Virus genome (UHGV): UHGV-1944544
Length of the DNA: 10,740 bases
Source: a virus
Reading direction: 5' to 3' (one strand)
Positions 506 through 5,943 of the stretch are shown here, piece by piece. Within the stretch, counting starts at the first letter, position 1; each line of letters begins with the position of its first letter. A program made the translations under genes and the position numbers. The notes beneath the pieces were generated by a model that was not told where the DNA came from, made no database searches, and saw only the letters and a program-made list of their open reading frames with translations.

Positions 506-2191
506 ATGGCAACGAAAGACAAAAACAAGGGCTTTCTGTCGGCATTGAAGAAAGCCTTCAGCGGTGGTGATGTTACGCCTGCCGATCCGGTCGTATTTGC
601 GAGCGGGCATAGCGTCGTTGCTCGTTCTGGCCTGTCCGCCTTGCGTCCTGGCATCCTGGGGAGCAATAGCGATGGCATGACAAGCGCGGCGGATACTGTA
701 TCTATATCGGCAGAATTACCGAGTGACCGCCTGCAAAAATACAACATACTGGAGACGATGGCGAAAAGCCCGACTATCTCCACAGCATTAAACATTCACA
801 TTGCGCATTCTCTGGCTCCATCAAAAAAAACAGGCCTCGCATTTATTCTCTCTCCGAAAAATGGGGCGGATAAGGAGGCTGTAAGTCGATGTGAGGAATT
901 GACCGCTGATTTAAGCTCAATGATTAATGATGGCCTGCCATCGTGGGCCATGATCATGGCTATTTTCGGTGTGTCGTATATCCGTCCATATGCAGAGCAA
1001 GGGAAGGGGATAACTGGAATTGAGTCGAGCTATTACACGCTCCCTCATTTCGTTCAGGAGTTTTATCGCGGTAGCCAACTTGTCGGATTCAGCGGTGATT
1101 ATATTCTGGATACGCATACTTTGCGCAGAGTTATAACCGAACCGTGGAATCTGGTTTCCATGAAAAACCCGTACTGGATGCCTCAGCATAAAGTAATGCC
1201 AGTAACTTACGGCACTAACGGCTATTCCTTGCTTAGTGAACAGCAGGACAAGCCGTTAATGGAGACGCAGAACTACGGTACGTCGTTTCTTGAATACAGT
1301 TATGAACCCTACCTGAATTTATGTGCCGCGCTTGCTGCGCTGAAAGCAACGCGAAACAACGCTGCAAAAATTGATCGCCTGATTGCACTCACAACGAACA
1401 CGATAGATCCGGTAAACGCGGCGAATTATACGCGCGGGGTCAGCCAGGCACTGAAGCGTCATAGCGACCTCGTAGCGCAACGGTCGATTAATTCTAATGC
1501 TCTCCCATCTGTACTTAACCATCTGATACCCGTCATGGGGGATGGGAAGAACGGGATCACCATTGATACGCAATCTATACCCGCAGATATCAGTGGTATC
1601 GAAGACGTTATGTTTCATCTCCGACAGCTCGCGGCAAGCCTCGGTATTGACGCAACAATGCTTGGCTGGGCTGATCAGATGAGTGGTGGACTTGGAGAAG
1701 GCGGTTGGCAGCAAACAGCTATCCAGGCCGCCTTACGCGCGAACTGGATCAGACAGGCCGCCCAGCGGACTATTTATCGGCTTCATGACATTCACCTCGC
1801 TTATAAATACGGGAAGGTTTACACCGAAAAAAACCGTCCTTATGACGTGCAATTCAACTCAATGAACACAGCTATCCAGGAAGAGGAAAACCGAGAGCTG
1901 GATGCGCGCGCCAACTTCGTAGCTGTCATCTCGCAAATAATGGACCAGATCCAGAACAACCCGAAACTGGCGGGTAGCGACGCGTTTATGCGTTATCTGT
2001 TCACCGAACAGCTTCGTATCGACGATGACACTCTCAACGTAATGATCAAAGAGTTTAAGGCGAATGAATCAGAGCAAAACAACGAGCATGGTATGTACGA
2101 ATCCGCGCCGTTGTCGTCCGGTGACGATCCGGAAAACTGGACGCAAGAACAATTAATCAACTTTGCAAAATTTGTGATGAGCAATAATTAA
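506..2191 (+). CDS. hypothetical protein (561 aa), first gene of a two-gene operon
   Basis: Long uninterrupted ORF from ATG 506 with a weak GGTGA Shine-Dalgarno. Its stop lies 13 bp before the next ATG. No Walker A or other catalytic motif recognised; the N-terminal ~80 aa are Gly/Ser/Ala-rich. A resemblance to phage portal proteins is speculative. Confidence 0.7.
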   Translation: MATKDKNKGFLSALKKAFSGGDVTPADPVVFASGHSVVARSGLSALRPGILGSNSDGMTSAADTVSISAELPSDRLQKYNILETMAKSPTISTALNIHIAHSLAPSKKTGLAFILSPKNGADKEAVSRCEELTADLSSMINDGLPSWAMIMAIFGVSYIRPYAEQGKGITGIESSYYTLPHFVQEFYRGSQLVGFSGDYILDTHTLRRVITEPWNLVSMKNPYWMPQHKVMPVTYGTNGYSLLSEQQDKPLMETQNYGTSFLEYSYEPYLNLCAALAALKATRNNAAKIDRLIALTTNTIDPVNAANYTRGVSQALKRHSDLVAQRSINSNALPSVLNHLIPVMGDGKNGITIDTQSIPADISGIEDVMFHLRQLAASLGIDATMLGWADQMSGGLGEGGWQQTAIQAALRANWIRQAAQRTIYRLHDIHLAYKYGKVYTEKNRPYDVQFNSMNTAIQEEENRELDARANFVAVISQIMDQIQNNPKLAGSDAFMRYLFTEQLRIDDDTLNVMIKEFKANESEQNNEHGMYESAPLSSGDDPENWTQEQLINFAKFVMSNN

Positions 2192-2204: not shown

Positions 2205-3203
2205 ATGCAATCACTGAATACCGTTACGGATCGCTTCTCCCTGGTAGAGAAAATCCGCAAACACACACCTCAGAACAATCGCAATTACGTTATCCAGTCG
2301 GTACGAGACACATTCAACTCGCCAGAAACAAAAGAGCGTATCGCACTGGGTGAGATGTATGGTTATTACGGTCATGGTCGCCGGGCGATGCACTATAACA
2401 AAACGAAAAGCCTGGACTTGCCGGAAGTCTCTGTTGTGATGGTAGATGGGAAGCCTGTTGTATTGGAGAACGTGCCGTCAAACAGGACTATCGACATTTC
2501 AATTGACGACAACGGCATTGTTACCCATACACAGGAAATACTGGATACGGACACCGGACGTATTGTTCAGGGTATGATTAATTCTGGCGCAGGTGGTTGG
2601 TCATGGGCTACATCTGGTCCAGATTACTCTGTATCCCTGGTAAAGTCTTTTCACGGTTTTGATTACGTAACAGTGCCTAACTATATCAGCCTCGACAAGA
2701 AAAGCCTGATGCTTGAATCAGCAGAAGAACGCGACGCGGCGATTCATGCGGCACTTATCGAACAAGGTTTTACCGATAATGCTGCTACGGATCTGGTTCA
2801 CCACTTTTCAGCAATGAAGAGTCAGCAAGCCATATTCGAATCAGCACAACGTGAAGTTCTGGAGTCGGAACTGATACATCTTGAAGTGGAAAATATGCAG
2901 CTTCGCGACAAACTACGCGACCAGGCCGCGATGATGGAAAGCCAGGGGGAGAACGCAAAGAAATCCCGCCGTATTTTGCGTGATGCTATCCAGGAAATGC
3001 CTGTTTTTATCAGCGCAGAACAGCGCCGGGCGCTCTGCCGTATGCAGTCAGAGGATGATGCACGCATTGTCGCAGCGATGCTTGAATCCCTGGGGGCTAA
3101 TGCCACTTATGGTCTGCCAATATCAGCCAATAAACAACAAGAAATACCGGTGAAAGAGAACAAGACGGTGACTCCGCTGATCTTTGTGTCTAAGAGGATG
3201 TGA
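2205..3203 (+). CDS. hypothetical protein (332 aa) with a predicted alpha-helical/coiled-coil C-terminal half
   Basis: ATG 2205 preceded by a strong GGAGGG Shine-Dalgarno (2194-2199). The C-terminal region (ESELIHLEVENMQLRDKLRDQAAMMESQ...) is heptad-like and charged. No family recognised. Confidence 0.75.
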   Translation: MQSLNTVTDRFSLVEKIRKHTPQNNRNYVIQSVRDTFNSPETKERIALGEMYGYYGHGRRAMHYNKTKSLDLPEVSVVMVDGKPVVLENVPSNRTIDISIDDNGIVTHTQEILDTDTGRIVQGMINSGAGGWSWATSGPDYSVSLVKSFHGFDYVTVPNYISLDKKSLMLESAEERDAAIHAALIEQGFTDNAATDLVHHFSAMKSQQAIFESAQREVLESELIHLEVENMQLRDKLRDQAAMMESQGENAKKSRRILRDAIQEMPVFISAEQRRALCRMQSEDDARIVAAMLESLGANATYGLPISANKQQEIPVKENKTVTPLIFVSKRM

Positions 3204-3316
3204 GCTAAAAGCTAGCTTAATTTTCTAACACAGTGTGTTTTTATACACTGTTGATCCGACGGCGCGTGATCGAGTAGGATCGCGGTCACTGCTCCGGTAG
3301 CGACTGCCAAAAAAGC

Positions 3317-3340
3317 AAAAGCCGCTGAGAAGCGGCTTTT
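3317..3340 (+). terminator. Rho-independent terminator downstream of the 506-3203 operon
   Basis: Perfect inverted repeat AAAAGCCGCT / AGCGGCTTTT around a GAGA tetraloop, with the GC core followed by TTTT. The flanking A-tract and T-tract make it potentially bidirectional. Confidence 0.55.
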
Positions 3341-3401
3341 GGGTGTATAAATCTCCGGACATAGATTTATACGGTAGATAGATTTTTCACGGTACTATCT
3401 G

Positions 3402-4361
3402 GTGAGTATTTTAAATTCAGTTTCAGTAACTTTCAACACTTCTGAGTATAAAAACAACACTGAATACCACAAAAAAATCAAAGGTCATCAGTTGAGTTTT
3501 TTTGCTCGTCATAGCGGTTTTCTTTCCCCTTCACATAGCGCCATTATTGCCGAGTTCGCCAACCTGGCAGGAGCTACCGATGAATACATGATCCGTCGCT
3601 CATATGCTGATATGTCCGAGATTACAGGACGCAGTATTTCTACTGTGCGCCGGGCATTTACCGAAGCGACGAAGTGCGGAATGCTTGTTAAGCAGCATCA
3701 GGTAGCGAATAACAATGCTCAGGTGTGTAACGTGTACCGGTTTACAACACAATTTCTCCACTTCATTCATGTAGCAATGGAGATAGGGAGTAAGCAGGGC
3801 ATCAAATTTGCCAACGCCACAAAACTGGTTAAGCAGTTGATTTCAAAGGTTCGTTATTTTTTTGAAACTGGGAACCCCCTGTTCAAATTGAACAAGTCCC
3901 CCCATGTTCAAAATGAACAGCCAATAGAAAATAAGAGTCACTCTATAGCCAAAAGAAGAGAAAGATCATGCGCGGTTCAGCCAAAGGCTTCACCAGCAGA
4001 TAGTTCTCAAGCGGATAATGGCTTGCTGGATAAAAAAACAGTAATCAGGGAAGAACATACCAACCACTGCCTGGCGGCAGCAAAAGCGAGAGCTGCAAAG
4101 CGTCGTTCAGACGAGGGGTACGCAAAACGGCAGGCTCTGTATCGTACCGCTGAAAAACTGGCAAAAAAATTTGCATGGTTACGTAGTGCTACCACAGTGA
4201 ATAAGCCCAAACGATCCAGCGCCCTGGATTTCTCTATGGATTATTCTGCTTCCCAGGGATGTGCAACCATCAATGAAGCATTTGACCTGATGAAACAGCG
4301 TGGCTATCGGTCTGAATTTGACCGGGAAGACTGGTCAATTCCGGAGGGCTTTCGGGGATGA
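3402..4361 (+). CDS. helix-turn-helix DNA-binding protein, possibly a replication initiator or regulator; N-terminus uncertain
   Basis: ORF of 319 aa from GTG 3402 with no Shine-Dalgarno. The first in-frame ATG is at 3588, where the nearest AGGAG is 15 nt upstream. HTH-like segment MSEITGRSISTVRRAFTEATKCGMLV, then a basic Lys/Arg-rich C-terminal half. The AT-rich 5' part contains direct repeats. Confidence 0.55.
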   Translation: MSILNSVSVTFNTSEYKNNTEYHKKIKGHQLSFFARHSGFLSPSHSAIIAEFANLAGATDEYMIRRSYADMSEITGRSISTVRRAFTEATKCGMLVKQHQVANNNAQVCNVYRFTTQFLHFIHVAMEIGSKQGIKFANATKLVKQLISKVRYFFETGNPLFKLNKSPHVQNEQPIENKSHSIAKRRERSCAVQPKASPADSSQADNGLLDKKTVIREEHTNHCLAAAKARAAKRRSDEGYAKRQALYRTAEKLAKKFAWLRSATTVNKPKRSSALDFSMDYSASQGCATINEAFDLMKQRGYRSEFDREDWSIPEGFRG

Positions 4362-4501
4362 TGTTGCGATTGACTGTACAATAACCGTGCGGCGGGAATT
4401 TCATCGCTCTAAAATGTATGTTAGAAAATTAAATTGATGTTTCTAATCAAGAATGTATGATTTATATCGTCACTAAAAAACAGCATCTGATAAAAATTCT
4501 G

Positions 4502-4530
4502 TTGATCTTTCTAATGTTCAGGCTTATATT
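4502..4530 (+). promoter_or_regulatory. Candidate sigma70 promoter (-35 TTGATC, 17-bp spacer, -10 TATATT)
   Basis: Hexamers read at 4502-4507 and 4525-4530. It lies about 250 bp upstream of the 4778 ORF and rha, and precedes the alternative-hairpin region at 4581-4620. Confidence 0.3.
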
Positions 4531-4777
4531 CATGCCGTCGTAGCAAATTCTGCGACCGGGTTTAGCAGCCTGAATGTTAGTGCGGACAACCGCAGATATC
4601 CGATATTGCGGTATTTTTGTGTCCGTAAAACCGCGTTACGCCCAAATTATGGTGGGGCGTGATGGGGAGGCTTCGGCCTGCTGGTTTCACTAACGCCAGT
4701 CTGCTAACCCCGTCACGTCCTGCCACCTGTTTAGCAGCGGGTAGCAGGTTGTTAAACCTGTTAGTGAGGCCGTAACT

Positions 4778-5002
4778 ATGGTTAATGCCAATCCTTGCTC
4801 ACGTCCAGAATTCATCTGGCGTTTTCACTCCCTGCAAAAACACTGCGATCACTTCGCAATTGCCGCAACTGAAAAAGAAGCCCGTTCTCTGATCCCGGAT
4901 CAGTATGGCGTTCTCACTGGTCGTTTCTCTACTTCCCCACAACCAAACACCAATCCCTGGTATCGCAATATTACCAATCCCGGCATTGTGGAGGCTCACT
5001 GA
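4778..5002 (+). CDS. hypothetical small protein (74 aa), translationally coupled to the Rha gene
   Basis: ATG 4778 with GAGG 8 nt upstream. Its TGA stop overlaps the rha ATG (TGATG at 5000-5004). No family recognised. Confidence 0.45.
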   Translation: MVNANPCSRPEFIWRFHSLQKHCDHFAIAATEKEARSLIPDQYGVLTGRFSTSPQPNTNPWYRNITNPGIVEAH

Positions 5003-5943
5003 TGGATATCTGCATTCTCGAAAAGCCATCAATGACAAGCATTGAGATCGCGGAGCTGGTGGGAAAACGTCATGACAATGTGAAACGCACTATTGAGACA
5101 TTAGCCAAAGGTGGCGTTATTGTTCGTCCTCAAATTGAGGTTTTCGAAAAAATCAATAACTTAGGACTACGACGTAGTGTTGAGGCTTACGTCTTCGAAG
5201 GCGAGCAAGGCAAGCGCGATAGCATTATCGTCGTCGCGCAGCTCTCTCCCGAATTCACCGCCCGGCTGGTGGACCGCTGGCGCGAACTGGAGAATGCCCG
5301 GGTACAGTTAAAATCAAAAGCCGAAATCCTGGCCGAAATGGCGCAAATGCATCTTGAGCATGAACGCCGGATCAACGCCGTTAATGCCCAGGTAGCCGAA
5401 GTATCCGCACAAGTGTCCAAAGTCGCTGAAACCGTCGAGCAGATCAAGAAAGGCAATATTCCGGAAGGCTACATTGGCTATCGCCAGTTGGCGGCAAAAT
5501 GCGGCCTGACTGAAGCCAAATGCCGCAACCTGGTCAACGCTTACCGGATACCCACTGATACGCATGAGTTTTTGACGCCAGAGGGGGTATTGTCGCGTCG
5601 TACTATTGTGGCCTTATCTCCCTTCATGAATGCCTTTACCCTGATGATGTCGGAGGCTGAACACCGAGGAAAACGCTGGTATCATCCCAGGATGGGGCTA
5701 TTTCAGGCCATTCACCATCCTGTGCCTGAAAGTCCAAAGGCAAACCTGTCGTTGCATACCGCCAGAGAGAAGATTAAAACAGGGTATGCAACCGTATGCC
5801 GTCGAGCATCCTGGCCTGAAAGTGTCTGGGTATGGCCCGAAAGAGGCTCACGGAAAAACTGGCGCACCATTCGCGACGGCAAGATCTGTGCGATTGATTT
5901 ACAGCCAGAAGATGTAGCAGCGACCGACTGGATTGTTAGTTAA
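5002..5943 (+). CDS. Rha-family phage regulatory protein (313 aa)
   Basis: N-terminal SIEIAELVGKRHDNVKRTIE matches the Rha-domain signature (...AE.FGKRHDNV.R.I...). GGAGG Shine-Dalgarno 8 nt upstream of ATG 5002. Confidence 0.8.
   Translation: MDICILEKPSMTSIEIAELVGKRHDNVKRTIETLAKGGVIVRPQIEVFEKINNLGLRRSVEAYVFEGEQGKRDSIIVVAQLSPEFTARLVDRWRELENARVQLKSKAEILAEMAQMHLEHERRINAVNAQVAEVSAQVSKVAETVEQIKKGNIPEGYIGYRQLAAKCGLTEAKCRNLVNAYRIPTDTHEFLTPEGVLSRRTIVALSPFMNAFTLMMSEAEHRGKRWYHPRMGLFQAIHHPVPESPKANLSLHTAREKIKTGYATVCRRASWPESVWVWPERGSRKNWRTIRDGKICAIDLQPEDVAATDWIVS

Follow-up and report, generated by a model that had tools for sequence, protein, structure and literature searches.

Dam sites on a conserved promoter-like module upstream of repL in D6-like phage-plasmids: a candidate counterpart of the P1 Op53/P53 control region

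In the phage-plasmid P1 the promoter P53 and the operator Op53 control the kilA-repL lytic replicon, whose lytic origin (oriL) is located inside repL (PMC9948254). A further promoter, P53as, yields an inhibitory antisense RNA, according to the account of Heinrich et al. 1995 that is given in PMC9948254. The P1 record AF234172 carries the annotation 'Dam methylation site 1, 2, 3 within the regulatory region of kilA' for three GATCs that span 23 bp; site 3 falls within the -35 hexamer TGGATC of PkilA (i.e. P53), and the same record places Op53 over the -10 hexamer, a hairpin terminator just upstream and P53as in the 5' end of kilA. All three GATCs are kept in 52 of 58 P1-type Op53 regions. Precedents from other settings are the binding of SeqA to the dnaA promoter in its hemimethylated state and the regulation of IS10 by Dam (PMC10073500). 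Here we compare with these systems a 198-bp region (positions 3204-3401) of the virus genome sequence UHGV-1944544, a 10,740-nt stretch of DNA (hereafter the window) that its sequence identifies as a D6-like, P1-related phage-plasmid. This intergenic spacer separates pro, with which the late prt-pro unit ends, from repL, the gene of the lytic replication initiator.

We propose that this spacer is the control region of a lytic replicon and the functional counterpart of the P1 Op53/P53/P53as region, with three GATCs placed on the -35, the spacer and the -10 of a promoter whose use is modulated by methylation, and we give this joint reading a probability of about 45%. Such modulation is proposed because Dam sites overlap both core hexamers and, by analogy with the systems named above, the promoter would probably be sensitive to Dam methylation or to SeqA. 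The spacer lies directly 5' of repL, the first gene of a replicon of the RepL family; RepL homologues carry the domain PF26868 (Phage_P1_RepL), and the D6-type protein is 28% identical to RepL of P1. The 801 bp around the GATC cluster show 99.6% identity with a 94-kb plasmid of Escherichia marmotae and 87.6% with phage D6, while among the E. coli phage-plasmid records found the identity is 96-98% in 17 and 80-90% in the other 81. A near-identical complete plasmid (NZ_CP099353; 94,247 bp, 312 GATC) was used for genome-wide counts. The GenBank record of D6 carries no annotation inside the pro-repL spacer.

The comparison took in 19 distinct D6-type sequences and then further lineages recovered by protein searches and context look-ups, giving nine lineages that comprise the window/D6 clade, E. 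fergusonii, S. dysenteriae/L033 and, as distant lineages, those of Raoultella (L092), Klebsiella (L101), Enterobacter (L094), a metagenome contig (L095) and L100. In the distant lineages RepL is only ~33% identical and the portal-pro-spacer-repL synteny is kept. The blocks that are invariant across all compared lineages are T.CTAA, CA(C/G)TGTTGAT, GTAGGATC and the stem of a terminator. The second and third of these hold the two hexamers of a promoter-like module. The 6th base of the -35-like hexamer, C in the majority of lineages, is replaced by T or A in L004, L030, L033, L092 and L094. Every lineage has 17 or 18 bp between the hexamers, the intervening sequence being unrelated from one lineage to another, and in the D6 clade positions 3257-3266 form the most variable stretch of the whole intergenic region at constant length. 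The -10-like block GTAGGATC is unchanged in 19/19 D6-type variants and in all distant lineages, with the bases that follow it varying (G, A, T). Fixed spacing, conserved hexamers and a free spacer are together, at the level of the alignment, the comparative signature of -35 and -10 elements, and we infer from sequence that the deeply conserved TTGATC-N17/18-TAGGATC is a probable sigma70-type promoter. A simple weight-matrix (PWM) heuristic for sigma70 promoters gives TTGATC-18-TAGGAT a score of 5.84 vs 6.02 for P53 of P1, and the same heuristic ranks the experimentally defined promoters of P1 at the top of their region (P53as 9.45, P53 6.02).

Searches around this set of lineages brought up further arrangements. 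In the separate lineages L093, L096 and L099 repL follows two small open reading frames (67 aa; 77-82 aa) and there is a different terminator, which constitutes a third organisation of the lytic replicon, found in Enterobacter-type and metagenomic elements. Scanning of genome contigs for additional loci yielded none with single-protein patterns and only P1-type loci with an alignment-based scan. A minus-strand open reading frame at 3225-3362 was rejected as coding, as it spans the terminator and the length of the promoter spacer (17 or 18 bp) differs between lineages.

The three GATCs of the window (GATC#1 at 3253-3256, GATC#2 at 3268-3271 and GATC#3 at 3278-3281) had been picked out by a first-pass annotation of this DNA, and the sequence bears out both their positions and their promoter-proximal setting, the regulatory DNA being that of a replication gene and the 'helix-turn-helix gene' of that annotation being repL. 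They are 10, 15 and 25 bp apart, and GATC#1 in TTGATC and GATC#3 in TAGGATC show the overlap of GATC with a promoter hexamer that would be looked for in a Dam-sensitive promoter. The statement that the cluster is far denser than chance is a weak one. The whole window has 42 GATC vs 39.4 expected, a cluster of three within <=29 bp appears in 8.25% of 2000 dinucleotide-preserving shuffles of the window, and for AGCT, CGCG, GCGC and ATAT alike the window has triples that are at least as tight; across the 94,247 bp of NZ_CP099353 there is 1 GATC triple within <=29 bp vs 0.98 expected under random placement. Thus, GATC density by itself is of weak significance. However, the tightest GATC triple of the genome falls in the 198-bp repL control region, i.e. 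0.2% of the genome, and it is the location of the cluster, rather than its density, that is non-random.

Comparison between lineages separates the conserved from the variable part of this pattern. The homologous 95-bp modules of seven independent lineages contain 18 GATC vs 3.2 expected, with no other palindromic tetramer enriched to a comparable degree, and most of this excess stems from the two conserved sites embedded in the hexamers. GATC#3 is present in every sequence examined that has the module, and GATC#1 in the D6 clade, E. fergusonii, L095, L100 and L101. Around them the sites turn over: L094 has two additional GATCs downstream of the -10 site (3 within 26 bp), L100 has one additional GATC 2 nt after the -10 site and L095 has four within 46 bp, so that modules have between 1 and 4 GATCs whose positions shift, that of the -10 being the sole constant. 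Thus, as judged from the aligned modules, the solid signals are two: the Dam site of the -10-like hexamer, which is universal, and that of the -35-like hexamer, which is frequent. The 'cluster of three' is a lineage-specific elaboration.

GATCs were also noted in other positions. Three of the distant lineages have a convergent minus-strand promoter, TTGCGC/TTGCGT-16-TATAAT, ~70 bp upstream of repL (L092 2905-2945, L094 2906-2946 and L095 2987-3027), with a conserved GATC in its spacer and inverted-repeat flanks (ATTGCGC-GATC-TGTGCGCAAT); a variant of this element with a GATC occurs in L101 at ~2405-2445, the promoter having been scored in L092, L094 and L095. It would represent, in the distant lineages, a second Dam site of the same control region, on the antisense arm. 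The second-tightest GATC triple in the window (4847, 4891 and 4898; 55 bp, 4847-4901) lies within icd. The pac site of P1 is under adenine-methylation control, and in plasmid NZ_CP099353 the 5' part of pacA (L007 5928-6060) has five GATCs in ~150 bp, in the contexts TGATC(A/C) and GGATCA, which probably mark its pac site. Two further ideas were dropped: a general association of GATCs with operators (8 vs 5 expected, with 3/8 coming from the site at 3216-3232), and a GATC cluster near the plasmid rep gene as a marker of oriR, that cluster being inside the next coding sequence.

Upstream of the promoter-like module lies a candidate operator. When the k-mers of the spacer were counted across the whole of plasmid NZ_CP099353, only the 17-mer CTTAATTTTCTAACACA proved to recur; at a cut-off of <=4 mismatches in 17 its family has 19 sites in the plasmid vs 2.7 in shuffles, and includes several back-to-back inverted ('bivalent') pairs and sites before c1 and c4, among others. 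Phage D6, which encodes a C1 homologue, likewise has 19 sites of the family, including those before c1, lpa, c4 and ref. The family has a consensus of ~ATTAATTTTCTAACACA in both NZ_CP099353 (L007/L008) and D6 (L097/L098), and is unannotated in the GenBank records. Its positions before c1, lpa, c4, ref and repL, which resemble those of the P1 C1 regulon, point to a D6-type C1 regulon. The operator core TTTCTAACA, in which T.CTAA is the part kept in all lineages, resembles the core of the P1 C1 operator, GCTCTAATA; the operator consensus of P1 itself finds 0 matches genome-wide at <=3 mismatches. Because of the 19-site family, the P1-like core and the C1 homologue of D6, the site at 3216-3232 can be read as the D6-type C1 operator of the lytic replicon, an Op53 analogue to which C1 would bind.

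Between this site and the -35-like hexamer lies an imperfect palindrome. Its arms, ACAGTGT at 3230-3236 and ACACTGT at 3245-3251, had been noticed in the first-pass annotation as a hairpin flanking the GATC cluster; the arms are real, but they belong to another element, which flanks the operator and the -35. Of the two, the right arm (CACTGT) never varies and the left one is unconserved in the distant lineages. The palindrome overlaps a candidate operator-occluded promoter, TTTCTA-16-TACACT (-10 TACACT at 3244-3249, predicted start ~3256), and the invariant CACTG 5' of TTGAT suggests either such an overlapping promoter or a protein site. When the half-sites GTATAAATC and ACAGTGTAT were tried as a genome-wide operator they proved to be unique to the spacer and were rejected, the repeated motif being the adjacent TTTCTAACA family. 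The 8-bp palindrome AGCTAGCT at 3210-3217, which had also been listed, is present, but it is unconserved even in the 99.6%-identical relative and is without significance.

The 3' half of the spacer and the 5' end of repL appear to form an antisense arm. The predicted, near-consensus antisense promoter (Table 1) scores 9.45 in the above heuristic, only 4 sites in the whole window reaching >=7, and is identical in the divergent E. fergusonii clade. Transcription from it toward the bidirectional terminator, whose T-run is stronger on the minus strand (the plus-strand run has 4-6 T) and whose stem is kept with a variable loop in all lineages, would give an RNA of ~92 nt, its ends being placed from the positions of the promoter and the terminator. 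The predicted RNA folds with a minimum free energy of -30.6 kcal/mol (z = -4.4). The 10-bp inverted repeat that would form one of its stem-loops shows two covarying (compensatory) base pairs between clades, and the motif at 3345-3372 is unique in the genome. The direct repeats that the first-pass annotation saw just before repL, two copies of ATAGATTT at 3361-3368 and 3378-3385, do exist and are better described as arms of hairpins in this predicted RNA. The terminator, the inverted repeat, the operator and the antisense promoter are additions to what that annotation had listed. A search of Rfam matched no family to the spacer, with matches confined to C4, a1b1 and an isrK-like element at 4524-4730. 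An antisense promoter and RNA like those of the P1 control region are found here at the sequence level only. The leader between the -10 and the terminator is unconserved in sequence between lineages, with a small hairpin possible in each. The elements are collected in Table 1.

Table 1. Predicted elements of the pro-repL spacer and flanking genes (window coordinates)
Feature	Position	Strand	Remarks
prt, portal gene	506-2191		
pro, head processing protease	2205..3203	+	open reading frame; 'similar to P1 pro' in annotation of relatives and phage D6
Candidate C1-type repressor operator CTTAATTTTCTAACACA, putative Op53 analogue	3216..3232	+	member of a genome-wide motif family
Imperfect palindrome ACAGTGTGT-N4-ATACACTGT, AT-rich centre	3230..3251	.	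between operator and -35
-35-like hexamer TTGATC, contains GATC#1	3251..3256	+	TTGAT invariant in all lineages
18-bp spacer between hexamers	3257..3274	+	GATC#2 at 3268-3271
-10-like hexamer TAGGAT + C, giving GATC#3	3275..3281	+	
Short leader, -10 to terminator	3282..3315	+	variable sequence; predicted start near 3287, from hexamer position only
Predicted antisense RNA, ~92 nt	3310..3401	-	three hairpins including terminator; covers repL start and leader
Bidirectional intrinsic terminator	3316..3341	.	11-bp perfect stem, 4-nt loop
Perfect 10-bp inverted repeat GTATAAATCT-N8-AGATTTATAC	3345..3372	.	stem-loop in predicted antisense RNA
repL, lytic replication initiator	3402..4361	+	GTG start; relatives annotated 'lytic replication protein'
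Predicted antisense promoter TTGAAA-17-TAAAAT, putative P53as analogue	3408..3436 (3436->3408)	-	within first repL codons
Second candidate C1-type operator	4417..4433	-	upstream of c4/icd/ant immunity region

Several of these observations weigh against a methylation-modulated promoter for repL. The hexamers match the consensus at only 4/6 and 4/6 positions, and as each strand has ~2 sites per kb that score >=5.5, it is conservation that carries the argument, the score by itself being weak. The candidate operator leaves the core promoter free, with ~20 bp between it and the -35 downstream. In every lineage the terminator stands between the promoter and repL, and the promoter may give only a short RNA, while a second candidate promoter, TTGGGT-17-TAGATT (3339-3367), which is overlapped by the inverted repeat, is nearer to repL. 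The region upstream of repL in L093, L096 and L099 has no GATC. Where the module is present, GATC#1 has become TTGATT or TTGATA in L004, L033, L030, L094 and L092 through at least two independent losses, GATC#2 is restricted to the D6 clade, L092 and S. dysenteriae/L033 have a single GATC only, and outside the two hexamer-embedded sites the seven lineages have 6 GATC vs 2.8 expected (P=0.06), an excess that is not significant. A search of the open-access literature turned up neither an experimental test of a Dam effect on P53 of P1 nor a published report of one. The density within chance (8% of shuffles; ~1 expected per genome), the loss of GATC#1 while TTGAT stays invariant, the absence of GATC#2 outside one clade and the lack of a significant excess beyond the hexamers are all consistent with the GATCs being incidental, the hexamers being conserved as a promoter or protein site, the GATC between them having arisen by chance in a free spacer and methylation having no regulatory effect. 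We regard this as a serious alternative, to which we nevertheless assign clearly less than an even chance: the C after TAGGAT is invariant down to ~33% RepL identity, though not demanded by the sigma70 consensus, a non-consensus C occupies position 6 of the -35 in 5/7 lineages, new GATCs have appeared beside the -10 in L094 and L100, and the unrelated P53 sequence of P1 likewise has three GATCs. The other end of the spectrum is a phase switch of the pap/agn43/opvAB type, as suggested in the first-pass annotation, in which a regulator competes with Dam to generate heritable ON/OFF patterns. Three GATCs within 29 bp of regulatory DNA, adjoined by a palindrome and an operator that could bind proteins, would suit such a switch. 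However, the GATCs lie in the hexamers and the spacer, outside the operator and the palindrome, with no OxyR-type motif (ATAG-N7-CTAT) or Lrp-type site over them, their turnover between 1 and 4 sites at shifting positions is a misfit with a switch requiring precisely placed sites, and the controlled gene is a repressor-controlled lytic replication initiator, not a surface structure. The switch is therefore very improbable, and of the Dam link drawn in that annotation it is the general part that survives as plausible, given the GATCs on the -35, spacer and -10 and the three Dam sites annotated in P1.

The vicinity of an initiator gene also raises the possibility that the cluster is the lytic origin or another SeqA-sequestered origin element, which had likewise been proposed. 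The segment 3185-3451 has four 8/9 matches to the DnaA box TTATNCACA, at 3185 (-), 3241 (+), 3342 (-) and 3443 (-), an AT-rich stretch follows at 3350-3500, and a short promoter-to-terminator transcript could act as an activator or primer. Yet the DnaA-like matches are unconserved in other lineages, the spacer has no iterons or 13-mers, its only tandem repeat being part of the hairpins of the predicted antisense RNA, the segment with the GATCs has a high GC content (59%), and in P1 oriL is inside repL (PMC9948254); an origin at this site thus appears quite improbable. Somewhat better placed, although still unlikely, is a self-contained, C1-controlled small-RNA gene with its promoter at 3251-3280, a ~55-nt transcript and its terminator at 3316-3341, repL being transcribed from TTGGGT-17-TAGATT. 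In its favour, every lineage has the terminator ~35 nt beyond the promoter, conservation extends to the downstream candidate promoter (score 5.5-6.0), and the leaders, which differ, can each form a small hairpin. Against this, the plus-strand T-run is short and termination may be partial, the 30 nt transcribed are unconserved and hence hold no conserved seed, Rfam has no match here and P1 has no such RNA.

If methylation does modulate this promoter, several steps can be envisaged for the control region. C1, bound at 3216-3232, would keep the adjoining promoter or promoters silent in the lysogen. Upon derepression, transcription would start from near 3287 and proceed through the short leader and a leaky bidirectional terminator toward repL, with the repL transcript being opposed by the ~92-nt countertranscript from the strong promoter in the repL 5' end. 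The methylation state would alter promoter use either by changing the binding of RNA polymerase or through SeqA on the hemimethylated pair or triple of sites. Full methylation might mark the resting plasmid prophage, hemimethylation the moments just after the fork has passed and under-methylation the phase of rapid lytic replication; initiator synthesis would thereby be tied to the state of replication, in the manner of the E. coli dnaA promoter or pIN of IS10. D6 encodes a dmt-like adenine methylase, which could shift the methylation state late in infection. A broader version of this scheme, which we consider unlikely as it stands, would extend it to the whole P1/D6 superfamily: the promoter of the lytic initiator would be epigenetically gated via the conserved -10 Dam site and the evolving GATCs next to it, with Dam and SeqA reading replication state, and a ~55-nt C1-controlled RNA interacting with the countertranscript would be an additional possibility. 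The gating might act in either direction, by blocking accidental lytic firing just after plasmid replication, when the repressor has been displaced, or by boosting repL on under-methylated DNA in lytic growth.

Downstream of repL lies the C4 antisense-RNA immunity region (4524-4730, from Rfam), followed by icd and a Rha-type antirepressor gene. The Rfam matches are a P1-type C4 antisense RNA at 4645-4730, an a1/b1 target element at 4524-4576 and a sub-threshold isrK-like match. Together with the second operator (Table 1), the C4 and a1b1 elements would make up an immI (c4-icd-ant) region, which is downstream of repL here and upstream in P1. The antirepressor of the Rha family (window 5002-5943) has 313 aa, as against 235 aa in the E. 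marmotae plasmid (L001 10102-10809), and this difference in length implies that the element of the window diverges from that plasmid downstream of icd.

Phage-plasmids of the P1/D6 kind occur commonly in Escherichia, Salmonella, Klebsiella and Enterobacter and carry resistance genes, and the silencing and firing of the lethal lytic replicon governs their stability and spread. Gating by Dam or SeqA, if it occurs, would place an epigenetic, replication-coupled layer on top of the C1 and antisense-RNA control known from P1, and would give a testable role to the three annotated 'Dam sites' at P53. The operator consensus, the promoter module and the predicted countertranscript are also usable for annotation and for the engineering of D6-type vectors.

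The likenesses to described systems are of different kinds. With pap, agn43 and opvAB the spacer shares clustered GATCs in regulatory DNA; it differs from them in having no Lrp- or OxyR-type site over the GATCs, in the unconserved GATC positions and in showing no sign of bistability. The E. coli dnaA promoter and oriC offer a closer parallel, in that the promoter of an initiator gene has clustered GATCs 10-25 bp apart, a spacing compatible with SeqA (PMC10073500), although there are fewer GATCs here, a single one in some lineages, and binding of SeqA would be hypothetical. In pIN of IS10 a Dam site overlaps the -10, so that methylation can set promoter strength and link it to fork passage, according to the description of Roberts et al. 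1985 in PMC10073500; the element and its function are other than those considered here, and dam-dependence of the present promoter would again be hypothetical. Dam sites at this kind of promoter are already annotated in P1, and the arrangement is thus not a new kind of switch. The two regions are unalignable in sequence in addition to the low identity of RepL, and they differ in that kilA is absent here, the operator is ~20 bp upstream of the -35 rather than over the -10, its consensus is ATTAATTTTCTAACACA rather than ATTGCTCTAATAAATTT, GATCs are found also on the spacer and the -10, and the terminator lies between promoter and gene, whereas in P1 it is upstream of the promoter. Nevertheless, the architecture is reminiscent of Op53/P53/P53as throughout: both regions lie directly upstream of a lytic replicon with a RepL homologue and have a defined or candidate operator of the C1 family, a predicted or defined sigma70 promoter with a GATC in its -35 (TGGATC-17-TCTAAT in P1 and TTGATC-18-TAGGATC here) and three GATCs spread over 23-29 bp. 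In both, a strong antisense promoter, defined in P1 and predicted here, faces the sigma70 promoter from the 5' end of the opening gene, the antisense RNA ends, or would end, at a bidirectional terminator, and the leader has an inverted repeat.

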